Source of the DNA: Ranitomeya imitator
Lineage: Eukaryota
Length of the DNA stretch: 64,000 nt
NCBI RefSeq assembly: GCF_032444005.1
Contig: NC_091288.1
Span: 203,546,001-203,610,000, forward strand
Reading direction: 5' to 3'
A program made the position numbers and the translations under genes. A model generated the notes under the pieces. It was given only the letters and a program-made list of their open reading frames with translations. It made no database searches and was not told the origin of the DNA. This document shows, piece by piece, positions 4,301 through 64,000 of the stretch. Position 1 is the stretch's first letter. The number at the start of each line of letters is the position of its first letter.

Positions 4301-4503
4301 TCATTAGGAAACCATAAGGGTTATATAGCAGCAGCCAGAAAGTAATGAAGATCCCATTATCAGGTCCTGTACATAAAAAGTCGTGTGCAGGACAGATCCT
4401 GGGCTGCCGAGAGCGTGGAAGGCAAGACCGACCCTGTATCCTATGACCGTGTCGCTCCTCTGGCAGCCGGCGCGCAGTCACGGAGATGTGCAGCCATGGG
4501 GAT
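1335..4503 (-). other. NAA60: Probable non-coding terminal (3' UTR) exon of NAA60; distal end uncertain
   Basis: Donor CAG|GTATG lies 7 nt after the NAA60 stop (GT at 5515-5514). The next strong minus-strand acceptor is CTTAAT...TTCTCCCTTTTCCTGCAG| ending at 4504. Minus-strand AATAAA candidates at about 3235-3240 and 1352-1357. Confidence 0.4.
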
Positions 4504-5521
4504 CTGCAGGAAAAGGGAGAAATTATTAAGTGTTAGGGTAGTGCCACCAGTGACACGGTGTCTCAACCAGCATAAGTGTATGATCGTTGGGAGCCCCAGA
4601 TGCCGAGACCCCCACACAGGGGTCCTAAAGTCCCGTGTGTGAGCGAGCATGTGCGACCATCACTCCTATACGGTGAATGGAGCAATGGTCGCACATGCTC
4701 ATTTACACAAGTGACTTTGAGACTCCCCCATGGGTCAACCCTTTTAATCCCGAGAACAAAGGTCTGGTGTCTCCTGTGTGAAAGGAAAGAGTTCATTGCA
4801 GGACCCTGGACCAACGGCCATCAAATCTACTAATCACAGGCGGCTCTGGGGTTAGGAGGAAGATCGCAGGGCTACCAATGTGGCCAATGGACCAGTGTCC
4901 TGCAATTCTTTTTGCTCCACTCTGATGACCAATGCTCCACTGCATGTCATGTGCATTCACAGGGGGACCCCCTTTATCAGGATCAGTGATAACCATTAAT
5001 GCAGAAGTTTGCATAAAGCCCATAGATTAGAAGAGAAAAAGCTGTGGACACATGCAGCCCTGTCTCCCATCAGCCAAAGAAGGCTGTACCCCAGTTCTCT
5101 CTATAGATAGGAAAATGATTTTTAAATGTATGGTTACATCTGATAGGACAGCGCCCCCTGTGGCCATAGGAACTTCCAGATTATACACAGCACGGGAGTA
5201 CCCTTGTGTTTGGTGTTATGTCTAATATGATTAATTGATGCTTGGAACAACATGACAAAAGAGAAAAAGAAGAAAGTGAAATGAGACAGAAGCAAAAATA
5301 AGGAAACATGTAAATTGGCTGCAGAAATGGTTTTTCTTTATCATGTAGGCACTAGGGACTTCCCTGAAAATTCTTTAAGCCGTGCAATGGCTGCCCTAGT
5401 TTCTGGTAGTACATGATAGACACGACCTGCCATGGGAGTGACAGTGCCCTCTGCACTCCCGCAGTGTCAGTGGTGACAGTGCCCTCGGCACTCCTGCAGT
5501 GTCAGTGTGCCATACCTGTTA

Positions 5522-7267
5522 TCACATGGTGCGACTGTACTCGATGCCACTCTTTGCAGAGATGCTGGACCAGGGAAGTAAACTACGCAGCAGAGTGTGG
5601 GCCTGGCGGTAGATCCTCTGGGGCAGCGAGCATGGGCTGAGACCGGCCAGGGCAGAACCCAGGTGCTGCAGATAGTCCGTGAAGAAACATTAAGGAAGAT
5701 AAAGAAGTAAAGAAAGTATGGCCGACCTCGACATGGTGTAAAAGAATAGCATTAATTCTCCCACTATCTAATGCTTGAAGCCAACTAGACATCTTTTAAA
5801 GGGGTCCCGAGTGCTGACATTGACAGCCTATCTTTAGGATATCAGACCGGAGGGGTCCGACAGTCAGCACCCTGACTGATCCGCTGTATGCAGCTGCAGC
5901 CGGACGCATAGTGCAATGTGTAGTGGACGTTTTGGGGTACTGCAACTCAGCTCCCATTCACTTCAACACGAGCTGATCTGCAGTACTCAAGAACGGGCAC
6001 TATACAGCGTATGAATCTGTGCTATTCCGGCTCCATATATCCAGCTGTCGAGGGAGCTGCAAAAAAAAAAAAAAAAAATCAGTGGAGTGCTGGGTGTCTG
6101 ACTCCACCGATCTGATATTCTAAGGAAAGGCCAACAATATCTAAGTAGAGGAAAACCCCCTTTAAGGAGGCCAAACCTGCTAATTTTGGTGGAAATGACT
6201 GACCAGTAAATGTGTTTGGGGAAGTCCCGACTCTTCTCTGACAGCAAATGTTTTTGGAGGATCAGGCATGTTGGATTTCAACATGCCCGATCCTTTGTTA
6301 ACCCAGTGACAGAGGTGTCCAGCAGCCATTTACATTCCTCTTCCTATTCAGAACACATGCACGCTCAGCTGAAGTGAGAGTGCATGTGTATATGGAGAGA
6401 GGAGAAAAACTGAAGGATCTTCTTTCCTAAACCCCCATTAATCTGAGAAGGATATATCACAGTCCAGGGCGGGTGCCCTCCGTTGAGGTATAGCACATAC
6501 GTGTAGGCATCCTGCAGCACCCCGCGGATGGAGTAGTAGTACGGCAGATAGTGGTGCTGATGGAAGTGTCGGTTCTCGTAAAAGCGAATGGCACTGCTGT
6601 TGGTGGTCAGCACGTGCAGGTACAGCGCCTTGCACAGGTCCTGGGCGGTACTGGAGATGTGACTCTTCAGACTTTCCAGCAGCAGGGACCCTGATAATAA
6701 AAAAAAAGCCCATTAGCGAGTGAGTAAGCACAGATACCAATTGCGGTCTGCCGCCGCGGGTCTCACCAATGCCCTGTTTCCTGAACTCCTTCACCACGCC
6801 CAGGCTCAGTATGTATGCCACCTGCGTGTCGCTGGTGAAGCTGGACGCCAAGATGTCCCCATCCTACAAGGAGGGAAATAAAGAATTAAGGTGACGACGC
6901 CGACAAGGGCGATATAAGAAGATGGCGACGCTTCCACTCACCTCTTTGTGCACTTTGGTCCTGCTCTTTATTTCGGCTACAATCATGCCCACTATTTGCC
7001 CATTGTAGGTGGCAGCCAGGGAGAAGAATTTCTTGTTCGATGTGATGTCTCGGTACCAGGAATCCGGGTACCTGCGAGGGATCGTAATAAGGGATGACGT
7101 ACATAGGATATCCAATACTGCTCGGGGCAATGGCCGCCCCCTCGGGGATAGACTTACTCGATGGGAAACCAGTCGGCACATAGTTCCTTCACCGTGTCTA
7201 TGTCATCATGGCACAGGAAGCGCAGGACCGTGTCAGCGAGAGCAGCGGGGGAGCCCTCCTCGCTCAT
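5522..7267 (-). CDS. NAA60: N-alpha-acetyltransferase 60 (NatF); join(7267-7158, 7071-6942, 6863-6767, 6690-6456, 5678-5522), 242 aa
   Basis: Spliced translation MSEEGSPAALADTVLRFLCHDDIDTVKELCADWFPIEYPDSWYRDITSNKKFFSLAATY...VAYILSLGVVKEFRKQGIG...LHVLTTN...GGHPPWTVMDYLQHLGSAL...SGIEYSRTM* matches vertebrate NAA60 motifs. Exons of 110/130/97/235/157 nt sum to 729 nt in one frame. Confidence 0.97.
5679..6455 (-). other. NAA60: U12-type (minor spliceosome) AT-AC intron in NAA60
   Basis: 5' site |ATATCCTTCT, branch TTCCTTAAT about 10 nt before terminal AC|. This is the only junction that keeps the frame (AT|G = Met191). Confidence 0.93.
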
Positions 7268-31550: not shown

Positions 31551-33081
31551 TATGTTATAAGTCAGTGGACCCCATCAAGCATCGCCCCCTTTTGGAGGGA
31601 GCGGTTCTTGGCCCTCCTATAAAGCACGCGGAGTTGAATTAATAGTCTGTAATATTGTCAGGCTCTGGATGTGTCTAACCTCTGGCACCAAGCAGAGAGA
31701 TGGTGACGGTAAAGCATAATGGAAAGTTACCGAAACCTTTCATTATACAATGATTAAACCTATTTATATTAAAGGGAACCAGTCAGCGGGCTATTACATG
31801 TAGAAATAGTGATGCGGACTTGTAGGTGCTTGTCGCTGATGAAAAGTGATACCTTTATTGCCAAAATCCGATGTGCCAGTCACGAGAAATCAAGCATAAA
31901 AATCGCATGCAGATCAGTCTTTAAGTGCACTGGGGGGTGTCAATGCACTTGAACTACTTACCCCCTAATTTGTATATCGTTTCTACTCTAGATTTTTGAT
32001 ACCTGGCACATTGTATCTCTACAAAAAAAAGGACGACAAGTGTCTATATGGCTATACCACTACTCCCATATGTAAAAATATGCTGCCAAAAGCATCTAAA
32101 TAATCATATTTAATCAATGCCGAGAAAAAAAAGTCACATTCAAGTTCTGAGCTATTAGTAAAATACAATTCTATCAATTAGGAGACTCAAAATATCTGAA
32201 CCTCATTTTCCAAACCAGCATCGGTTATGACTCCATGATAACTTTATGACTTGCTTTTTTTTCATCTTTCTTCCCACTGGAATCCCTAGGTCAAGAAATA
32301 TGTTGCCAACTAAATCTCAGTTCAGGTAATTGTTTAGAATATGCTGTATGTGAGGGATTTCTGATCTCCTGTCTCTATGTAGCAAACATTCAGAAGCAGC
32401 AGCATGGAGGACATTATACATCAGCGCTGAGCAGTGTAGCTGTGAATCCAGCTCTGGGGGAATAAAATAAAAGCACTTACTAGAAAGCACAGATCCCTTT
32501 CTTCTCCATAAACCTTAATAGGCAGCTTTAATCTGATTCCTTAGTGAGCAGGCAGTTATTTTTTTATCTTGAGCAAGACAGATTTATAGCAGTGTTACAG
32601 AATGAATGAGTTCAGGAAGCGGGGAGAGAAGTGGCTCATAAGTGGAGATAGAAGCAAAGTTCTTTGCAAAGATATATTATAAAGTTTCATTTTGCACTAT
32701 GGATTAATGCAAAGTTTGTTGAAGCGACAGTGATGATTGCAGTTGATTTTGCATTATCTGGTAATTTTGCCTCCATCATTTCCAATATTTCCTTTCTCCT
32801 GAAGCGGTCTTCCTCTTACCATCAGCCAATGTAGGTTTTACCTATGAATCTCTGACCAGTATTATACATGCTGGTGCCCTAACTATGGCAATAAATCCCA
32901 TTAGAACATGATATAAATGATGTTCCCATGGACAACATGTTCTTATCTCTGTGGACCTTGAGTTTGCACAGTCTTCTCCTGGGCAGGTGTGACACTCACT
33001 GCTTTTACTATCACCACAAATGAAATTTGGGAGGAGTCGCAGGGCTCGCTGGGTCACCTGTCTGTGTGGGAGGATATACAC

Positions 33082-33187
33082 TATATAACCTGCTGTCTAA
33101 TAATTCCAATGATAACTCTTAGACAGTCTATCATCAACGGCCGGGATCAGGAAGACACATCAGGAAAGCAGAAGCACGCCGTCCAGT
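33082..33187 (+). promoter_or_regulatory. Candidate TATA promoter and non-coding exon 1 of the DNase gene
   Basis: TATATAA at 33082-33088 and donor CCA|GTGAGT at 33186. The coding exon has acceptor CATCAG|AG-ATG at 37034, so an upstream exon is implied. Confidence 0.45.
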
Positions 33188-33784
33188 GAGTATTCAATTT
33201 TCTTCTAATCCTTTGGTACCACCACTCCCATCCTCCTCTATCTTCTGAAATAGGCTTCATCTTCTATTACTCTAGTACTTAAAGGTCTATAATGACTGGT
33301 AAAGTCCACAGTCTTATCCTGTGACATCTCTGTTTTTCTCTTGGCCCCATAGACCAAGTTGGGCTTTGTCTTCTTCAGTCCCTACTTCTTTCCAAACCCA
33401 ACAAGGGTCACGAACTCCTGCCCCAACCAAAGTCTCCTCCCTACTCCATCTCAATGAGGGTCTTCTTCTTTTTCTTACCTTATTTTTCCAAATCAGATTT
33501 ATTTTTTTACAAAAATTTTCCATTTACAGATTGAAATTTGATCAAAGACAGACTTAACAACCCCCCAAAACTTGGCCGACTTCCATCTTCTTTCTCGTTC
33601 CTCTTGGACATTGTTGATGAATTTCGCAATGTTGTGATCTTATTTATCGATTATTGGTACTGAGACACATGTAATGCCTTGTATGGCTGATATATTCTCC
33701 TTCAGCTCCCTAATACTTTATTTTTCCGGTGTACTTCGCCCTCTTTAGTTGATATCACAGGTGCCCCACATTAGCAACTTCTTG

Positions 33785-34850
33785 TGTTCTACTACTGTCA
33801 CCAGAACTATCACTACTACTACTGCCACCTCCACCACCACTACTATCCCTACCACTGCTACAACTACTACTAATACTACTATCACTACCACCACCACTAC
33901 TATCCCTACCACTGCTACAACTACTACTAATACTACTATCACTACCACCACCACTACTATCCCTACCACTGCTACAACTACTACTACCACTACTAATACT
34001 ACTATCATTACTACTATCCCTACCACTGCTACAACTACTACTACTACTATCCCTATCACTATCCCTATCACTACAACTACTACTACTATCCCTATCACTA
34101 CTACCAGTACTACTATCCCTACCACTGCCCCTACCCCTGCAACTACTGATACTACCATCATCAGTACTAGTATCCCTCCATACCACTACTAATAATACAA
34201 TCACTGCTGCCACTACTACTATCCCTATCACTAATACTACCATCACTACAACTATTCCTACCACTAATAATAGTATCATCACTACTACTACTACCATCAT
34301 CAGTACTAGTATCCCTACCACTACAAATATTACCATACCAGTACTACTCAGTACTACTATACCTATCACTGCTACTACCCCTGCAACTACTACTACCAAC
34401 ATCAGTACTACTGTCCCTAAAACTACAAATACTACCATCACTACTACCATCAGTGCTACTATCCCTACCTCTACTTCTACCATCACTACTACTAGAACTA
34501 CTATTCCTGCCATTACTACTACCTTTCCACTACTAATACTATCATCACTACTACCAGTACTACTATCCCTACCTGTACTTCTACCATCACTACTACCAGT
34601 ACTACTATTCTTATTATTACAACTACCCTTTCCACTACTAATACTACCATCACTGCTACTATCCCTTCCTCTATTTCTACCATCACTACTACCAGTACTA
34701 TCCTTACCTCTACCATCACTACTACCAGTACTACTATTCTTATTATTACAACTACCCTTTCCACTACTAATACTACCATCACTGTTACTATCCCTTCCTC
34801 TATTTCTACCATCACTACTACTATCATTACTACACTCCCTACCACTTCTA
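33785..34850. repeat. Degenerate (ACT/ACC)n low-complexity tract with 54-bp sub-repeats
   Basis: Triplet-based tract whose register shifts near 34185 and 34520. Confidence 0.85.
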
Positions 34851-35919
34851 CGTTCTGTACTTTCCCTATTTACCTCCAGCACCCCTGTGCCTACTACCTA
34901 TATATATTCCTCCCTTCATATCTAGTGCTTCATTACTCCATTATTGTAACCCTTTCCGCCCATTACGCCATTACTTCTCCACTACTCCTCCACATATGAT
35001 ATTCCTAATTTCTCTATGTCTGATTGTCATTCTGTTTTAATAGTCCCAATTTATACATTAGTACAGATAATGTCCCTGTAATGCTCCCAGTAATGGGTGA
35101 CCTGTACTCTCTCATCCTTCTCTATTACTCCTAATTTATATCTCTCCAGTACAACTCCTAATGTATGGGTCGCTGGCTCTCCTCTTCCTTGTTCGTGTAC
35201 TAATTTGCAGTCTTATTTTATTTAATCAGAACCCCATAAATAAATGATTAATTAGGTGATATATATATATTACTAGCTTCAGCCTTATCTCACTCCTCAA
35301 CATTGCTTGCCATCCTATTTGCTGAGTGGTTTTGATAATTGCAGCGTGCAGGATGTTATTATGTAAATTCCCGGGTGAATATCTTATGAATCATTAACAT
35401 CATATTATTAGTTAGATATCATTATCAGTTAGATATCACATTATTGAAACAAACATTAATCACTAAATACATAAAGGGATGTTCTTGGGAATTCTGGTAA
35501 GAGATAATTCTGGTGTTCTATTTCATATCTTGTGATGACAACTGTTCATATTCCCTATAGCGCCTCCGCAGGGAAAAAAAAGCATGACACTTTTCCTACT
35601 GAATCCTATGGAGTGTCCATGTAATGTACAGATGTGTCGGTCCTCCAGTGCGAGAGATGCTTTATGGTGCTGCTCACTCCTCTGGCTACTAGATGAGGAC
35701 CCCTTCACCGCAAAAACTCAACACCTCAGTGTTATGAACTTCACAGTTGTCCGACTGCCTTAAAACAAAATAGATTTTAAGACAAACCTTGAAAGAGGTT
35801 GTCCAATATGCAAGTATCCTCTTCATAAAGAAGAGATCTTGATCTCTTGCACCAACTATATCGACCCTTTAAGGAACTTTGCCATGTGATTTAGGATAAG
35901 AAGCCAAACCAGAACCCCA

Positions 35920-53930: not shown

Positions 53931-54530
53931 CCTGCTATACTTCATTTTCTTTGGTTATCTTTCAGTTCATGGGCTGTGTCAGAGATGGACTAATCAGCCA
54001 GCATTCATGATGTATCTTATTCCAACTTTTTCCAGATACATATGAAGCAGCTTATTTACACAAAACAAAAAAAAAAAACTCGTGTATAAAACACAAAAGT
54101 ATTGGCGATTATGACCCAAGAAAATGCTGAGATCATTCAGTAGCAGATTAGTATTTCACAACTGGAGTGCCCCCTCACAGGTACAAGTACCATCATGCAA
54201 AACACAGAACTCGTTTGCGAAAAGCATTAAGCTACTTACTGGTAGCGGCATTTTTCGGAGGCCCATGACAGCACTACGAGAGAGGGGATCCGCCCTTCAG
54301 GAACAGGAAACCTACAGATACAAAAGGGCGGTACCTCTCCCCATGCATCAGTTGTATATTAGAGCCTGAGAGGACTACCGCGGTTAGTAGCACACAAACA
54401 TACATTATATACAGTTTATGTCCAAAAATAATCAATCATAATGAACTATATACCACACGTGAGATCTATCTATCTCATTATATACATTATGGGAAGTGCA
54501 ACCCCCACGTGAATAGGGAGGGAACTAAGG

Positions 54531-54615
54531 GTGCTGTCATGGGCCTCCGAAAAATGCCGCTACCAGTAAGTAGCTTAATGCTTTATTCGGACTCCCATGA
54601 CAGCACTACGAGAGA
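54531..54615. repeat. DIRS internal complementary region (ICR)
   Basis: Reads as element 3' end + TTT (54582-54584) + element 5' start; identical to both termini. Confidence 0.93.
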
Positions 54616-54636
54616 ATTACAGAGATGTAAACTACC

Positions 54637-56065
54637 TTAGGGAGGGACTATAGCCTGTAGCACCCTTAACCCGAAGGTGAGATCAGAAGAGAACCCCAAG
54701 TCCAACCTATAGTGCTTGAAAAAGGTGGAAGGGGATGACCACGTAGCTGCCTTACATATCTGGTCGATGGAAACTCCAGATCTCTCAGCCCAGGATGCAG
54801 CCATGGCCCGAGTGGAATGTGCCCTCAGATTCTGCGGAGCTGGACCTCCACCTGCAGTATAAGCCAGAGAGATAGCCTCCCTAATCCACTTCGCTAGCGT
54901 GTACTTCGACACTAAGACCTTTCCTGGGACCTTGGAAAGATAGAAACAACGCCTCCTCTCTCTTCCAAGCATCAGTGACTGATATATATTCTAAGAGACA
55001 TCTCCTAACATCTAACGTATGGAGTAACTCCTCTTTGGAATTAGAAGGATTAGGGAGAAATGATGGTAGAACTATCTCCTGAGATCTATGAAATTCTGAG
55101 GCCACTTTTGGTAAGTAAGCTGGATCTGGTCTGAGGACTACCCTGTCCTGTAGAAACTCTGTATAGGGGGACAGCCTAGAAAGAGCCTGTATGTCTCCTA
55201 CCCTACGAGCAGATGTAATTGCCACCAAAAATGCTGTTTTGAGGGATAGTAATTTAAGTGAGGCTGAATGTAAAGGCTCAAACGGTTCTTTAGTCAAGGC
55301 TGAGAGGACTAGGTTAAGATCCCAAGGCATTGACCTATTCCTGTGTATAGGTCTGGATCTACTAGCTGCTTTGATGAACCTTGATACCCAATAATTACCA
55401 GCAATGTTGCAAGAAAATAAGGCCCCTAGGGCTGAGACTTGTACTTTTAGCGTACTCGTGGATAGATTTAGCTCTAGCCCTCTCTGCAGGAATTCTAGAA
55501 TCTGGTTGATTGGTAAACCCTCTTCGATATTAAAATTTGAAGAGGCCAGAAACTTCCTCCAAGTTCTAGAGTAGATCTTAGTTGTTATGAGTTTTCTACT
55601 CTTCATAAGGGTATCAATGAGATTTGGAGAAAATCCTCTGTTTTTTAACAGTGACCTTTCAAAGACCATGCCGTCAAATGTAGACCCTTCACTTGTGGAT
55701 GGTTGATCGGACCTTGATGAAGTAGGTCCGGGATGTCTGGCAGTACCCAGGGGTCTTCCACCGACATGGTCCTGAGCCAGGAGAACCAAGCCCTTCGGGG
55801 CCAGAACGGAGCGATCAGTATGATTCTCGCTTGATCCTCCCTTATCTTTCTGACCACCAGAGGCAACAGGTTTAGCGGGGGAAACGCATAAGCCAACCGG
55901 AAATCCCATCTGATCAGGAAGGCATCCACTACCAGCGGATATTCCCTGGGATTCAAGGAACAGAATTTTTTCGTTTTTCTGTTGTCCTTGTTGGCAAATA
56001 GGTCCACCTCTGGATGACCCCACCTGCGGACAATCTGGTTGAAGATTTTTGTGTTCAGAGACCAC
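54637..56065 (-). pseudogene. DIRS tyrosine recombinase, frameshifted near 54910
   Basis: TSARRVGD and, in the shifted frame, RAHSTR...WSS...TFFKHY (R-HxxR-Y tetrad). Confidence 0.9.
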
Positions 56066-57520
56066 TCTCCTTGTCTTAAGGTGTTTCGAAAGTCCGCCTT
56101 TATATTTTCCTTCCCTTTTATATGTACTGCTGCTAAAGATAGAAAATGATTTTCCGCTATCTGGAGCAGGCGGTCCGCTATTTCCATCAGGGACTCGGAG
56201 CGTGTTCCACCTTGGTGATTCACGTAGGCCACTGCCACCTGATTGTCGGAGAGGATTTTGACATGGTGACCCTGTAGATACACGAGGAGTTCCTTAATTG
56301 ATAATTCAATCGCCAACAACTCCTTTTGATTAGAAGAGGCTGATGTTTGGGGGTCCCATAGACCCTGGACTACCACGTCACCCATGTGTGCCCCCCACCC
56401 TGTGGGGCTGGCGTCCGTCGTAACTACCCGAGTCACTTGAGTCACCCAGGGAACTCCTGCTGACAGATTGTCTTCCCTTAGCCACCATCTAAGAGATGTC
56501 AGAACCTCTGGACTCAATGTCATCTGACCCTGCAAGGAACCCTGTAAGACTCTTGTCATAATTCAGTACGTCAAACTGTAAAGGTCTGGAGTGGAACTGG
56601 GCCCAACGGACGGCGGGAATACAGGAAGTTAGGGAACCTAACAAGGACATAGCCTGTCTAAGAGTCATGGTTGGTTCTTTAATTGCTTTTAATACCTGTT
56701 GTTGGATATGGCGCAGTTTATCAGTTGGAAGACAGCATTGTTGGGACTCGGAATCTAACAGCAGACCTAGGAATCTCTGGTTTTTTAGGGGTTGTAATCG
56801 GGATTTTTCATAATTCACGATCCAGCCCAGATTCTCTAGCTTAGATATAGCTGTTTTTACCTGAGCAAGGCAATGGTCTGCTGAGTTCCCAACTATCAGG
56901 AAATCATCCAGATAAGGGATTATGAGGATATCAGATTCACGTAAATGCGCCATGACCTCCGCAACTACTTTAGTGAATACTCGGGGAGACGTTGAGAGGC
57001 CGAAGGGAAGGGCTCTAAATTGAAAATGTCGAACAATACCCCCCATAGACACCGCCACACGTAGAAACCTCTGAAAGTTTTCATGGATAGGAACATGATA
57101 ATACGCATCTTTTAAGTCCACAACTACCATGAAGCAGTGTTTGAACAACATTTTAATTGCAGAGCTGATTGACTCCATTTTAAATGTGGCTTTAACCAGG
57201 TATTCATTCAGGGATTTAAGGTTAATGATAGTCCTAAATGATCTGTCTGGTTTCTGGATCAGAAAAAGGGGAGAGTAGAATCCACTCCCTCTTTCTGACT
57301 CTGGAACTTCAATCAGCACGTTTTTGAGGCATAAACTCACAACTTCTGCCTCCAAAGCCGTCTGTTCAATAGTGGAGGAACGTAAGGGGGTTAACATAAA
57401 TTTATCCCGAGGCCAGTGAATAAATTCTAATTTCAGACCTTCTGAAATAATACCTCGGACCCAGTCACTATTTGAGATGTTAGACCATGCGGAAGAGAAG
57501 GCTGACAATCTCCCTCCCAC
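55645..57520 (-). pseudogene. DIRS RT / RNase H / DAM-like methyltransferase ORF, frameshifted near 56550
   Basis: DLKDAYYH, LPFGL, YLDD, TTDAS, ELLAI, SDN, DLFA and YAFPP motifs. The two halves lie in different frames. Confidence 0.9.
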
Positions 57521-57532
57521 AGGGATCGCTAG

Positions 57533-58850
57533 TCATTGGTCCGGTTTCTTACGTTCTTTTGAGGAACGGCGGAACATGTAACCCGTACCTCTCCTGCGTC
57601 TATCCTCCCATCTAAAATTCTCTCTAGTGGGTGAGGATGCGCGCTTCCTTCCGCGACCAAATCTCCTCCTGTTGAATGGACGCCGATAAGAAGATGATGA
57701 CAAACTCGGGAATTTTTTCTTGTCATCTCCAGCCTTTTCAAGCAGGTCATCCAAGGTTGGCCCGAAGAGGTATTCCCCTTTGCATGGGATAGCGCATAAT
57801 TTGGACCTTGATTGAATGTCACCCGACCAACATTTCAACCACAGGGCTCTACGAGCCGCGTTGGAGAGTCCTGCTGCTCTGGCCGCCATCCTGACCGAAT
57901 CGACCGACGCGTCCGACAGGAAAGCCGCAGCATCTTGAATCACCGGAAGCGCACTTAGAATGGAACTTCTGGAAGCGCCTTCCTTAAGCTGGGATTCCAA
58001 CTGTTCCAGCCAGACCATTAGGGATCTGGCTGTACAAGTCGCAGCCACCGCTGGCCTCAACGATCCGGCTGCCATCTCCCAGGTACCTTTAAGGAAGGTA
58101 TCCGCCTTCCTGTCAAGGGGGTCTTTAAGGGATCCCATATCTTCGAAAGGTAATGCGGCCTTTTTTGATGCCTTTGCTACCGCAGCATCTAATTTAGGGG
58201 CCTTGTCCCAGGTATCCACAGTCGTATCCTCAAAGGGATATCTGCGTTTTAAGGCTGGTGGTAATGAGCCTTTCTTCTCCGGTTTCTTCCATTCCCGGAG
58301 AATCAGGTCTTGAATTTTATCATTCACCGGGAAGGACCTACGCTTCTTGTGTTCCAAACCACTGAACATTAGTTGCTGACGGGAAAGCGGAGTTTTAGGT
58401 TCTTCTAGGCCCATCGTACCTCTGACCGACTTAACTAATTTATCTACTCGGTCCAGAGGCAGACAGAATCGGCCAGATTCCTCTTCTGATGACGAGGAAG
58501 AGAGATTTGAGCCATAGGAACCTTCATCCTTATCTTCCTCTGATGAATCAGAGATCACCGAGGTTCTCTGTTTTGAACTCCCCGCCTGGGACATAGACCG
58601 CAGGGATTCCCTTACTTCTGTACGGATCATCTCACGCAGATTAGCCGTAGAAGCAGATTCTTCCGCTACCTAGGGGAGGACAATAAGGGTGATACCATCT
58701 ATCTAGCCTGATGTCACTCAACCCCTCCACTCCTGTAGACCTCACCGTCTGTTGTATACAGGAGGCGCATAATTTTTTAATATAAGAATCTGGTAACGGG
58801 ACTTCACACAGGGCACACTCCTTATGTTTCGACTTTGCACTTTTCTTTCC
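57533..58850 (-). CDS. DIRS gag-like ORF1, spliced: join(58850-58746, 58669-57533); first exon unresolved
   Basis: A 105-nt exon GKKSAKSKHKECALC...LCASCIQQT joins in frame to VAEESAS...MIRTEVRESL via a 76-nt GT-AG intron. Confidence 0.75.
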
Positions 58851-60382
58851 CTAAAATGACAAAGTATAAGGGGCCCGCGTCACTGAGTGAGCATTCACGT
58901 AGATCTCTTACCAGTGTACGCCAAAAAAGGTACCGGAACACGAGGGGGTTCTTTGCCAGTCGATGCTCTGGATCCCTGCTTGGACGAGCTTTTACGGCTG
59001 GACTGGTCACTTCTGGCATGCTCCTTCTCCGTGGCCCTTTTGTCGCACGTCCTCCGGCAACTGAAGCTGCCGCTCACCATCACTCTCCATGATGTGGATG
59101 TGACCAAAGGCAGAGCTCTATTCCCAGCTCCTGCTTAAATCCCCCTCAGATCCGGTCAGCAGGCTGCCTGGCGCCACTCCTATTGGTTCCGGCTGATGAG
59201 ACTACATCTGGGGGGTCAGCGCAGTGTGTGAGGAGACCGGCGTTCAGGATCGATGGGCGCCGCCATCTTGGATGAACTGCGCATGCGCAGTCACCCAGAG
59301 ACCGGAAACGCCTGCTGACTCCGCCCCCTCGACGTCACTGCACCGGAAACGCTCCAGCTAACGCTGAGAGCGATGCAGGACGCCGAAGAGCACGCAGCAG
59401 CGTTCCGGATAGCGTTCCCCTCCTGGCACCGCTACATCACCACCGTGCTGCACCACCACACCGAAGGAGCGATATACTTACCGGCGCCGGCGCTAACGGA
59501 GATCAGGAATCCTCTGGACTCTGCTCCCTGCTGTCTACATCACTGACGTGCAGTCCAGCCAGGACCACCGTGATGTCTTCCAGGAGCTTCCGCACCGGTC
59601 GAGGTAGGAGACCCCCCCGCTACCTGATTCGACCGGCCGGCCTGGGATCCATCTACGAGATTCATCTGTAGGATCCTGCCCCTCCAGGAATAGGAAACCA
59701 ACTGATGCATGGGGAGAGGTACCGCCCTTTTGTATCTGTAGGTTTCCTGTTCCTGAAGGGCGGATCCCCTCTCTCGTAGTGCTGTCATGGGAGTCCGAAT
59801 AAAATGAACCTGTGAAGGAGCCCTAGTGGGCTGCATTATGGATCTGTACATTTCTATAGCTTTCAAACTAACAGAAATAAGACTGATATGGACATTTCCA
59901 ATTTTTCTTCATTGTAATGACTAAGACATTTCAGAACTTAATCACAAAATATTAATTTTTTATTTAGTAAAAAGGTCAGAAAGTCTATTGACATGAAAAT
60001 GCCCAAATTGCTGCAGATTTAAAAATTATATTTTCTTGGAAAGTGGCAGGTAAAGAAGGCAGCACAAGACCACCCGTGCAGAAAGGTTGTGAGTAAGGAT
60101 GTTAGGGGTTTTAGAAACAGCTTTGCCGACTCCTGACTGACATACATTTTTTTTTTTAAGAAACCTTCTGTTCAGATGACCTAGAACAACGGCCCATCTT
60201 GATTATTTGGAGGGCTACGGTAAAAAATACAACAGGCGCACAATAGTGGCCCAGTGGACAGAAGAATTATACCACTCTGCCCCATTAAACACTATAACCA
60301 TTACCACAAGTGATAGGAGACCTCAACCTTTTCATTTCGATATATATGGTTTACTAAATCCAAGCATTAGCTCAGCCTGTGG

Positions 60383-61450: not shown

Positions 61451-63316
61451 TCACCTGGGAGGGACTACAGCACTAAGTACTGTATGGCCAAAAACTAAAT
61501 TGGCCTCTGAAGATAAATCAAGACGATAATGTCTATAAAAGGTGGAAGGAGATGACCACGTTGCCGCCTTACATATTACGTCTATGGAGACGTCCGCTCT
61601 TTCCGTCCAGGATGAGGCCATGGCTCGAGTGGAGTGGGCCCTGATGCCATCTGGTGGTGTCTGGCCTTTAGCAGTATAAGCAAGATATATGGCATCTCTT
61701 ATCCATCTGGCGATAGACGCTTTAGTTACACTCGCCCCTTTCCTTGGATTCTGAAAGGAAATAAACAGAGCCCTACTCTGCCTCCATGGTTCTGTTTTGT
61801 GTAGGTACTCTAATAGAGTTCTTCTGACATCTAACTTGTGATATTTCTGCTCGTCAGCTGAATTCGGATTGTTACAGAAAGATGGTAAAATTATTTCTTG
61901 ACTTCTATGAAATTTGGAAGCTACTTTTGGTAGGTATGCTGGATCAGGTTTTAACACTACCCTGTCCTGAAAGACCATTAAATAAGGAGGGTCTATCGAC
62001 AAAGCTTGTAAGTCACTCACTCTCCTAGCAGAGGTTAGGGCTACTAGGAAGGCTGTTTTTAAGGTTAAATTTTTAATGGAGACAGAATCTATTGGCTCAA
62101 AGGGGGCTTCTGTTAAGGCGTCTAAAACCAAATTTAGATCCCATGGTGGTAATCTAGGAATATATACTGGGTTACTACGTTCAGTGGCCCTGATAAATCG
62201 GGAAACCCATCTATTTCCCGCCACATCACTGTTATATAACGCTCCCAAAGCTGATACTTGGACTCTAAGGGTATTTACCGCCAAGCCCAATTCTCGGCCC
62301 CTCTGTAAAAACTCCAGAATAGCCGGAATTGGGACCTTGCCAGAAAAGGGATTTTGGTAGAAGGCAAGGAACTTTTTCCAAGTTTTAGCATAGATTTTAG
62401 TGGTAACTTCTTTCCGGCTATTTAAAAGGGTAGATATGAGAGCTTCTGAAAACCCTCTTCTCCTCAATAACTCCCTCTCAAATTCCACGCCGTCAGATGC
62501 AGGGATTTCACATTGGGGTAACGGAATGGACCCTGAGAAAGAAGCTCCGGGCTGGTCGGCAGTACCCAGGGGTCGGACACAGACATTGCCCTGAGTAACG
62601 AGAACCATGCCCTCCTGGGCCAAAAGGGGGCAATCAGGATCACTCTCGCCCTGTCCTCCCTGATCTTCCTGAGGACTAACGGGATCAGACACATTGGAGG
62701 GAACGCGTAAGCTAGAGGAAAATTCCAGTGTATTTGAAGGGAGTCTATTATACAGGGCTTGTCCGCCACCCGAAGAGAAGCGAACTTCCTGGTCTGCCTG
62801 TTCTCTCTCGTTGCGAATAGATCGATAACGGGCAATCCCCACAGGTCCACTATCTGTCTGAACACCCGTCGATCTAGAACCCATTCTCCCTGACGTAGAG
62901 AATGACGGCTGAGGTAATCTGCCTCTGTGTTGAGCTCTCCCCGAATGTGCACAGCTGATAGAGAGCGAAAGTGGGCTTCGGCTATTTCGAGTATGTCTGT
63001 GGCGGTGTTCATTAGGGATCTTGACCTTGTACCCCCTTGATGGTTGAGATACGCCACTACTGTTGTGTTGTCTGTCTGGACTCTTACATGTGAATCCTGC
63101 AGAGATGGAAGCAACCTGAGTAAGGCCTTCTTCACTGCCGTGAGCTCTTTCCAGTTTGAGGACTCTTGAGCCTCTAAGAGAGACCATTGCCCTTGAGTCC
63201 AGACATCTCCTATGTGAGCTCCCCAACCTATCGGACTGGCATCGGTTGTGACCGTGTTGTCTGGTACTACACTCCAGCGTACTCCTTTCCCTAAATGTCT
63301 TCTGTTTAACCACCAT
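61451..63316 (-). CDS. DIRS tyrosine recombinase, open frame
   Basis: TSARRVSD, RAHSTR and TFYRHY motifs in one 621-codon frame. Confidence 0.9.
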   Translation of the reverse strand: MVVKQKTFRERSTLECSTRQHGHNRCQSDRLGSSHRRCLDSRAMVSLRGSRVLKLERAHGSEEGLTQVASISAGFTCKSPDRQHNSSGVSQPSRGYKVKIPNEHRHRHTRNSRSPLSLSISCAHSGRAQHRGRLPQPSFSTSGRMGSRSTGVQTDSGPVGIARYRSIRNEREQADQEVRFSSGGGQALYNRLPSNTLEFSSSLRVPSNVSDPVSPQEDQGGQGESDPDCPLLAQEGMVLVTQGNVCVRPLGTADQPGASFSGSIPLPQCEIPASDGVEFERELLRRRGFSEALISTLLNSRKEVTTKIYAKTWKKFLAFYQNPFSGKVPIPAILEFLQRGRELGLAVNTLRVQVSALGALYNSDVAGNRWVSRFIRATERSNPVYIPRLPPWDLNLVLDALTEAPFEPIDSVSIKNLTLKTAFLVALTSARRVSDLQALSIDPPYLMVFQDRVVLKPDPAYLPKVASKFHRSQEIILPSFCNNPNSADEQKYHKLDVRRTLLEYLHKTEPWRQSRALFISFQNPRKGASVTKASIARWIRDAIYLAYTAKGQTPPDGIRAHSTRAMASSWTERADVSIDVICKAATWSSPSTFYRHYRLDLSSEANLVFGHTVLSAVVPPR

Positions 63317-63999
63317 CTCAGACTGTGTAGAGTGGTGGTGGAGAGCCTGAGTCTTCCGCCTAATTGCCCTTGAAGACTTCTCTCTGTATCCAAGACTTGG
63401 GCCTGTAACACTCGAGTGTGGAATTCAGCCCACTGGACGGCTGGTATGCAGGACGTTAGAGATCCCAGAAGGGACATAGCGTCTCTTAAAGTCAGATCTG
63501 GCTTCCTTGTTACCGTACTGATTACAACCCTCTGCTTTTTCTCCTCCGGAAGGAAACATTGTTGCACTTCCGAATCCAGCAGAATACCTAGGAAAGTCTG
63601 AGTTGTTGATGGGTCGAGTCTTGACTTCTCCATATTGACTATCCAACCCAAGTCCTGTAAGGAAGATATGACATGATTTAGGCGAGTACTACACTGGCCA
63701 AAGGAATTTCCTACTACCAGGAAGTCATCCAAGTAGGGTATAATTAACGTATCCTGTTCCCTGACATAGGCCATTACTTCTGCCATGACTTTAGTAAACA
63801 CCCTTGGTGCCATAGATAGACCAAAGGGCATTGCAGCAAACTGAAAGTGTCTGACCTGGTCGTTTAAGCGCACCGCCATTCTGAGGAATTGTTGATGATC
63901 CAGGTGAATGGGCAGATGGTAATACGCATCTTTTAAATCCAGGCCTGTCATATAACATCTGGGAAAGAGAAGATTAGTTGCCGTTTTAATAGATTCCAT
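62464..63999 (-). CDS. DIRS RT / RNase H / methyltransferase, 5'-partial, open frame
   Basis: DLKDAYYH, MPFGL, YLDD, TTDAS, ADYLSR, DLFA and YAFPP motifs. Confidence 0.92.
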   Translation of the reverse strand: MESIKTATNLLFPRCYMTGLDLKDAYYHLPIHLDHQQFLRMAVRLNDQVRHFQFAAMPFGLSMAPRVFTKVMAEVMAYVREQDTLIIPYLDDFLVVGNSFGQCSTRLNHVISSLQDLGWIVNMEKSRLDPSTTQTFLGILLDSEVQQCFLPEEKKQRVVISTVTRKPDLTLRDAMSLLGSLTSCIPAVQWAEFHTRVLQAQVLDTERSLQGQLGGRLRLSTTTLHSLRWWLNRRHLGKGVRWSVVPDNTVTTDASPIGWGAHIGDVWTQGQWSLLEAQESSNWKELTAVKKALLRLLPSLQDSHVRVQTDNTTVVAYLNHQGGTRSRSLMNTATDILEIAEAHFRSLSAVHIRGELNTEADYLSRHSLRQGEWVLDRRVFRQIVDLWGLPVIDLFATRENRQTRKFASLRVADKPCIIDSLQIHWNFPLAYAFPPMCLIPLVLRKIREDRARVILIAPFWPRRAWFSLLRAMSVSDPWVLPTSPELLSQGPFRYPNVKSLHLTAWNLRGSY

Positions 64000-64000
64000 C

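Follow-up and report, generated by a model that had tools for sequence, protein, structure and literature searches.

How can a retrotransposon express a pol gene that lacks a start codon of its own and lies directly behind the stop codon of gag, in the same frame? The question is raised by a DIRS1-like element of Ranitomeya imitator, located in a stretch of 64,000 nucleotides (positions 203,546,001 to 203,610,000 of contig NC_091288.1, assembly GCF_032444005.1), hereafter the window. A first, sequence-only reading proposed that this element makes a Gag-Pol fusion by UGA readthrough. From comparisons across the genome, we consider it likely that in its lineage, termed clade A here, Gag results from termination at UGA-CUR-G and Gag-Pol from reading through it. 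The relevant features of the window are as follows.

54221..59803, minus strand: DIRS1-like retrotransposon copy of clade A, broken by small indels, recognized by its terminal and internal repeats, its indels and empty-site contigs.
59699..59802, no strand assigned: left inverted terminal repeat, pairing with 54251-54354 over 104 nt at 97%.
54531..54615, no strand assigned: internal complementary region (ICR), complementary to both termini over 54 nt (54531-54584) and 34 nt (54582-54615), each 100% to a terminus.
58934..59090, minus strand: predicted first gag exon with AUG, from splice signals; 157 nt and out of phase in the window copy.
58746..58850, minus strand: predicted second gag exon with a CxxC-x12-CxxC zinc-finger-like motif, between two short GT-AG introns.
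57536..58669, minus strand: main gag exon, a stop-free frame of 378 codons with a LAP2alpha domain (Pfam E 1.8e-19).
57583..57592, minus strand: donor-like AG/GTAC (phase 1) in the tail of gag; 23 of 28 distinct clade A tails have it.
57529..57538, minus strand: candidate readthrough signal CAA-TGA-CTAG, with the stop at 57535-57533.
57488..57521, minus strand: predicted 12-bp hairpin beginning 11 nt past the gag stop, suggestive only.
55645..57532, minus strand: pol (reverse transcriptase, RNase H and C-terminal domain), in the frame of gag; broken near 56555 in the window copy.
56272..56295, minus strand: candidate splice acceptor (pyrimidine tract plus CAG) into the recombinase frame, with the CAG there in 22 of 22 scored clade A loci.
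54637..56293, minus strand: tyrosine recombinase (YR) open reading frame (ORF) overlapping pol; broken near 54913 in the window copy.
61451..64000, minus strand: element 2, of clade B1, represented here by the 3' part of pol and the recombinase; the junction of its gag and pol is outside the window, in locus L031, with pol at +1.

The window element has the hallmarks of DIRS1-like elements: inverted terminal repeats (ITRs), an ICR, reverse transcriptase (RT) with RNase H, and a YR ORF overlapping pol. Its pol matches RVT_1 (Pfam E 1.2e-21) and RT_RNaseH. The YR matches Phage_integrase at E 0.0056, below the curated cut-off; such matches are weak overall (E 2e-4 to 6e-3, below cut-off), and relatives named as tyrosine recombinase domain proteins match at E <1e-80. 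We found no integrase or protease domain and no other Pfam family at E 0.01-0.1, and the approximately 190 residues past the RNase H match, where a methyltransferase-like domain was looked for, gave no Pfam hit. The closest named protein matches are from dendrobatid frogs. DIRS1-like elements have been described as having three overlapping ORFs with ITRs and an ICR, and the parts of these descriptions available to us do not give a route of expression (PMC3266345, PMC9210276). The window element shares with Dictyostelium DIRS-1 and Xenopus DIRS-like elements the ITRs and ICR, a LAP2alpha gag and an RT/RNase H pol overlapping the YR ORF. Unlike described DIRS1 elements, it has gag and pol in frame across one stop, predicted gag introns, and a YR that overlaps only the 3' third of pol.

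Because of frameshifting indels near 56555 (pol), near 54913 (YR) and in the first gag exon, the window copy is unable to make full-length Pol itself; many of its siblings have a 630-codon pol that begins at the gag stop. The flanks 54220 and 59801 are joined in contigs of two of four sequencing runs, with three ambiguous letters at the join, which we read as an empty-site allele; the lack of a target-site duplication, another DIRS1 trait, would be read at this join. Thus, the insertion is apparently missing from some individuals or alleles. Together with a junction that is identical in all 30 best-matching loci, the empty-site contigs show that the element is young. Elsewhere, the window has strong negative GC skew at 33000-35000 (-0.80 in 34001-35000), probably a simple repeat. 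Locus L031 contains two short, host-exon-like open frames on the minus strand at about 4500-7000, suggesting a location of the elements within the introns of a gene; the frames may resemble an enoyl-CoA isomerase.

At the junction, gag ends in GAC CAA, followed by TGA at 57535-57533 and then, in phase from 57532, by CTA GCG ATC CCT GTG GGA GGG AGA TTG, all on the minus strand. The first ATG in pol is at 57397-57395, 45 codons past the gag stop. The sequence-only reading had placed gag and pol in one frame across UGA-CUAG, with the VGGRL N-terminus of pol directly past the stop and no AUG for about 45 codons. The frames, with LAP2alpha on one side and RVT_1 on the other, confirm the former, and the window sequence confirms the latter. 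The overlapping AUG and third-frame stop (TAG) that it had noted at the junction are likewise both present.

The junction is neither a chance occurrence nor peculiar to the window copy, but a trait of the lineage. We searched the 5.96-Gb genome for TGA-CTR-G in register with the codons for PVGGRL and obtained 1,010 matches, versus 0 with the reversed control. Allowing any TRR codon in that register raised the count to 1,062 (control 120), and TAA or TAG gave 7 matches, two of them clade A copies (control 112). CAA precedes the signal in 96 of the 99 matches listed; the leucine codon past the stop is CUA or CUG only, and 25 of these 99 have CUGG. The context of the clade is thus UGA-CUR-G, wider than UGA-CUAG. 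Such copy counts are not independent; clade A has a single origin.

To place the window element among its relatives, we used a pattern for the pol N-terminus, which has 3,716 sites in the genome (control 111). We took 70 of the first 100 sites listed, namely the top 30 in list order plus 40 chosen by eye from the remaining 70 to cover varied sequences; with one locus each for the window element and element 2, the pol tree had 72 rows. Groups were defined from this tree and not by their stops: clade A with 14 rows, B2 with 25 and B1 with 33. Clade A forms one clade (support 100/99), and 13 of its 14 sampled copies have TGA-C, the remaining copy (L080) having CGA. The shared frame and the constant C at +4, which a family-wide readthrough signal called for, thus hold across the clade. 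Its families differ by dS values from 1.1 to saturation, yet retain TGA-CTR-G. For the codons between the stop and the earliest AUG, dN/dS is 0.09-0.25 in the seven clade A family pairs with a defined non-zero value; one close pair has 0 non-synonymous changes, and one of the nine pairs is saturated. This stretch is under purifying selection and is therefore presumably translated in the pol frame, with entry at the stop or no more than about three codons from it.

These values bear directly on the suggestion that the UGA is an inactivating mutation or neutral inheritance, with Pol supplied in trans by other families. The window copy is indeed broken, one clade A copy has CGA, and DIRS-1 RT can act in trans according to the portion of that study available to us (PMC7192593). 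However, the stop is invariant among families that are saturated and have a pol, first codons included, under purifying selection. The dN/dS values already largely refute this explanation, which we find scarcely credible.

Alternatively, pol may be started separately, by reinitiation at a non-AUG codon (CUA or CUG) past the gag stop or from a short internal-promoter transcript as in the Candida element Tca2. AUG-independent reinitiation occurs in LINE-1 and caliciviruses, and a stretch of 45 codons that has no AUG, yet is under selection as translated sequence, fits such a start. CUA is the majority codon past the stop, though, and it is not known to serve as a start codon. The overlapping AUG lies in neither useful frame in 10 of 10 representatives, opening only 8-46 codons; we rejected it as a stop-start signal. 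It looks like a by-product of CAA-TGA, and is missing from 5 of 22 junctions in B2. Reinitiation would also leave the avoidance of TAA unexplained. Tca2, like the window element, has one in-frame UGA between gag and pol, but is an LTR element and not a DIRS; as far as the accessible part of the report goes, in yeast the sequence at its junction did not direct readthrough, and a minor promoter lay within it (PMC2194720). Altogether, a separate start of pol seems very unlikely.

A further explanation without recoding is a minor splice that removes the UGA, from a phase-1 donor (the gag-tail AG/GTAC or another) to the AG of CTAG, of CCA-G or at +34. Conserved intron signals occur elsewhere in these elements; CTAG is in pol phase and lies 60-75 nt from the tail donor (present in most distinct tails, as listed above), a distance similar to the length of the gag introns. 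All 14 sampled clade A copies have an AG in pol phase, either no more than 9 nt past the stop or at CCA-G, and one annotated clade A-like model (P0017) skips from the tail of gag into the interior of pol. The junction AGs, however, lie in purine-rich sequence with 35-40% upstream pyrimidines. An acceptor model trained on nine gag acceptors of these elements, with which the plain pyrimidine count agrees, gives the CTAG acceptor a mean of -12 bits (n=17), compared with a median of -6.8 for background AGs, +1.9 for the B1 intron and about +2 for the YR acceptor described below. The AG at +34 occurs in 6 of 10 representatives, is absent from the window's own family, and its use would delete the conserved PVGGRL. 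Across clade A, we found no conserved acceptor that preserves the pol N-terminus, as a spliced supply of an AUG to pol would call for.

One young family, with CTG-GCA-ATC-CCG past the stop, is informative here. It accounts for 8 of the 99 matches listed and has very short branches, and 3 of 8 copies keep all of gag, pol and YR intact. No AG lies between its stop and PVG and the tail donor is missing, yet its pol is under purifying selection (22 synonymous versus 9 non-synonymous changes between two copies). The family that lacks the junction AGs thus also lacks the tail GT, a co-loss that a splice pair would predict, and so a minor splice may operate in the other families. Moreover, splicing has no need for TGA-C, which in B1 is seen to be free to drift. 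We regard removal of the stop by splicing as unlikely. An annotated dendrobatid Gag-Pol (P0005) runs from the gag tail straight into VGGRL; from the protein alone, a sense codon and a splice would look alike.

From the observed frames, conservation, selection and complementary distribution of signals, we infer a scheme of readthrough, splicing and frameshifting and an order of events. In clade A, most ribosomes would stop at UGA-CUR-G, yielding Gag, for which a spliced first exon is predicted to supply the AUG; low-frequency readthrough would give the Gag-Pol fusion. The recombinase would be made from a separate spliced RNA with an acceptor inside pol. The leaky UGA-C likely goes back to ancestors where it opened into the recombinase frame (Gag-YR readthrough), and its move into the pol frame was likely caused by a small indel located between the stop and the codons for PVGGRL. 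In the sister clade B1, Gag-Pol would arise by removal of a 94-nt intron, and the leaky context was presumably lost.

The two related groups differ in where the gag stop leads. In B2, pol lies at +1 relative to gag, 22 of 25 copies have TGA-C as the stop, and the gag frame reopens directly past it; in L177 and L181 the reopened frame runs 968 codons to the recombinase, with its first AUG 490 and 234 codons in, respectively. Among copies in which the first 900 nt of pol contain no more than two stops, this frame has a mean of 5.0 stops in B2 (13 copies, 6 with none), versus 22.5 in clade A (6 copies) and 14.4 in B1 (16 copies). In B1, which includes element 2, pol is also at +1 and no in-frame ORF follows the gag stop. 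There the stops are 14 TAA, 9 TGA and 9 TAG, with none in one copy, and TGA-C occurs in 0 of 33, compared with 13 of 14 in clade A and 22 of 25 in B2, the groups with an in-frame ORF past the stop; B1 serves as an internal control. With A and B2 keeping UGA-C and B1, which has an intron into pol, having lost it, the leaky context occurs where a downstream ORF has no other entry. Each ORF appears to have one entry per group. The check on the junction of element 2 went against a shared layout: pol was at +1, not in frame, in all 11 loci read of 15 taken. Readthrough of UGA as the source of Gag-Pol is therefore supported by sequence comparison for clade A but is not general in DIRS elements, as the pol frame of element 2 and the frame-shifting intron of B1 indicate.

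The predicted B1 intron starts at a G/GTGAGT-type donor in the CxGEY motif of gag (31 of 33 copies), followed by a branch-point-like CCTAA or CCTGA, a pyrimidine tract and a YAG 94-101 nt later. Its length is 3n+1 in 29 of 31 copies, and in 27 the splice would reach pol in phase. A less strict donor pattern matches 0 of 14 clade A, 3 of 25 B2 and 32 of 33 B1 copies. This conserved 94-nt 3n+1 intron in coding gag, seen in L081, L086, L094, L100, L116, L129 and other B1 loci, lies about 240-140 nt before the PVGGRL codons. Several annotated dendrobatid models, which may or may not rest on RNA, break at the CxGEY motif into the pol frame (P0003, P0004, P0006-P0011, P0014, P0022, P0025, P0030, P0039, P0040). 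Entry into pol in B2 may instead involve UUU_CG, which occurs in the gag frame within the gag/pol overlap in 18 of 25 B2, 2 of 33 B1 and 8 of 14 clade A copies. Several B2 sites read UCC_UUU_CG, and a shift in the clade A copies would reach only a nearby stop. Candidate +1 frameshift sites to pol (UUU_CG or UCC_UUU_CGU) were also noted about 130-150 nt before the PVGGRL codons in L096, L097, L098, L101 and L141. Upstream AUGs in the pol lead-in of the B clades were rejected as starts, as they are scattered between -54 and -324 and are missing from some families. A +1 shift at the stop codon itself in these clades was dropped once the B1 intron and UUU_CG emerged.

Predicted splicing is not limited to B1. 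Short GT-AG intron signals are present in 5' gag of all three groups, and an in-phase AUG lies upstream of the first gag donor in 21 of 25 clade A loci; among sibling loci, 27 of 30 have a first exon whose length is divisible by 3. The signals (58670-58933 of the window, minus strand; L177-L196) are kept in genomic copies of all three groups, the second intron in clade A only, and unspliced RNA is therefore implied as what gets copied. A second, stronger donor, G/GTAAG at 58911-58906 (minus strand), lies 21-26 nt past the in-phase gag donor, and its phase varies among families.

Toward the recombinase, the candidate entry in clade A is the acceptor noted above, a pyrimidine-rich CAG that is in YR phase and lies about 1,250 nt from the start of pol. 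All 22 loci scored, out of 25 full-length ones, have it, and the YR is open for 546 codons past it in 7 of 8 copies checked. B1 has an equivalent acceptor in 6 of 6 copies, and of six B2 copies three have no AG in YR phase and three score poorly. No donor for the clade A acceptor was identified with certainty, and the predicted splice was not seen among 18 annotated Gag-YR models. An 'LSQGP' acceptor and an AUG at the pol/YR boundary were rejected as YR entries, neither being conserved. Contigs of four runs contained no joint at the gag introns or at the junction, although the runs may be DNA and contigs drop rare forms.

RNA structure past the gag stop gives a weaker signal. The 12-bp hairpin is found in the window family and is not in one register across clade A families, where folds consist of family-specific hairpins with a weak consensus. 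Mean z in clade A is -1.5 at 60 nt and -0.9 at 120 nt, compared with -0.3 and +0.1 in the B1 control, which reaches -1.15 at 200 nt. Separately, L096, L121, L141 and L098 have a predicted long-range stem from about 10 to 125 nt past the gag stop (mean z -2.3), with a G-rich 5' arm and, about 100 nt downstream, a C-rich arm, resembling the extended element of alphaviruses.

We extended the comparison to distant DIRS1 elements in metagenomes. The scan kept 80 loci with 31-42% identity to the query, and 66 remained after dropping 14 with less than 700 nt upstream. In 49 of these gag, the stop and YR are in frame, in 2 gag, the stop and pol, in 10 there is no in-frame ORF, and in 5 no gag was found. 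In the former, a single stop is in frame with a recombinase ORF of about 1,000 codons and pol is at +1, as in B2. Their 46 distinct junctions comprise 34 TGA (22 TGA-C), 12 TAG (10 TAG-G) and 0 TAA, versus 22 TAA and 4 TGA-C among 86 ordinary termini of these ORFs (Fisher p, with relatedness ignored, 4e-5 and 7e-9). UUU_CG occurs in the gag/pol overlap in 16 of 46 loci versus 2 of 46 equal upstream windows, and would thus explain about a third of the distant loci. An AUG lies within 50 codons of the start in 26 of 48 distant YR frames, and the 930-970-residue YR models of other frogs begin at such an early AUG; in the frog elements, such AUGs come from a conserved Trp codon of pol and are missing from some families. 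The two loci with the stop leading into pol are L286 (CAA-TGA-CTT) and L253, which is doubtful. In L286, at about 2160-2170, the CAA-TGA-CTT in the pol frame appears to be an independent origin of the clade A layout, and the YR frame also opens before the junction.

A stop in frame with the recombinase ORF is the commoner layout, and probably the older one. Protein trees with outgroups place B2 as basal and A with B1 (SH-aLRT 95), and the proposed order of events follows from them; these were quick searches with SH-aLRT support, one of which left out nine long or misframed rows and most outgroups. Related branches aim the same stop at the recombinase or use a predicted intron, and the elements therefore likely swapped routes to the same fusion proteins. 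We give an even chance to a broader reading, in which DIRS1 elements generally would use gag-stop readthrough for Gag-recombinase and a UUU_CG +1 shift for Gag-Pol on one RNA. One frog lineage would then have moved the recombinase to splicing, freeing the leaky stop, which one daughter clade re-aimed at pol and the other replaced by a frame-shifting intron.

UGA-CUAG is the strongest known readthrough context in vertebrates. In the accessible parts of earlier work, UGA-CUA is the alphavirus type and UAG-G the gammaretrovirus type of context (PMC3159437), and MuLV has Gag and Pol in one frame across one stop, made by readthrough (PMC3159437, PMC5009743). The window element differs from MuLV in having UGA-CUR rather than UAG-G and no detected protease domain, and its readthrough is a candidate only. 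Clade A resembles alphavirus type II (UGA-CUA/CGG) in its UGA-CUA context, its conserved single in-frame UGA with C at +4, a downstream frame that has no start of its own and is apparently translated, and a hairpin about 11 nt downstream in some families. Unlike that type, a quarter of its sites have CUG and the structure is not conserved in register. The influenza PA-X motif for +1 frameshifting is UCC_UUU_CGU, as given in the part of that source at hand (PMC5009743); B2 relatives and distant DIRS1 elements share UUU_CG as a candidate shift, which is not the route of the window element.

Goodwin and Poulter may have remarked on in-frame gag/YR stops and on introns, and an earlier mention of an in-frame gag/YR stop in the primary DIRS1 papers is possible. 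A search of titles and abstracts, with those primary papers outside its reach, returned no paper on readthrough, introns or frameshifting in DIRS elements. The portions available to us of ten related articles likewise hold no account of them (PMC3266345, PMC9210276, PMC7192593, PMC5941688, PMC8547959, PMC3783388, PMC6681497, PMC5633606, PMC5009743, PMC5718144). How the start-less pol and recombinase ORFs of DIRS elements are expressed is not addressed in those same portions.

The clade A junction is real and conserved, and sequence evidence indicates that it is likely read through. For every ORF of every lineage, our comparison proposes a specific route of expression that can be tested; it also yields about 1,000 candidate UGA-CUR-G sites in a vertebrate genome, and would account for the odd gene-annotation models of these elements. 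Of most interest is the apparent exchange of one mechanism for another (readthrough, +1 frameshifting or splicing) between neighbouring lineages, which would form a natural series of such replacements. If the broader reading, with two recoding events on one RNA, is true, these three would be interchangeable solutions within one genome.
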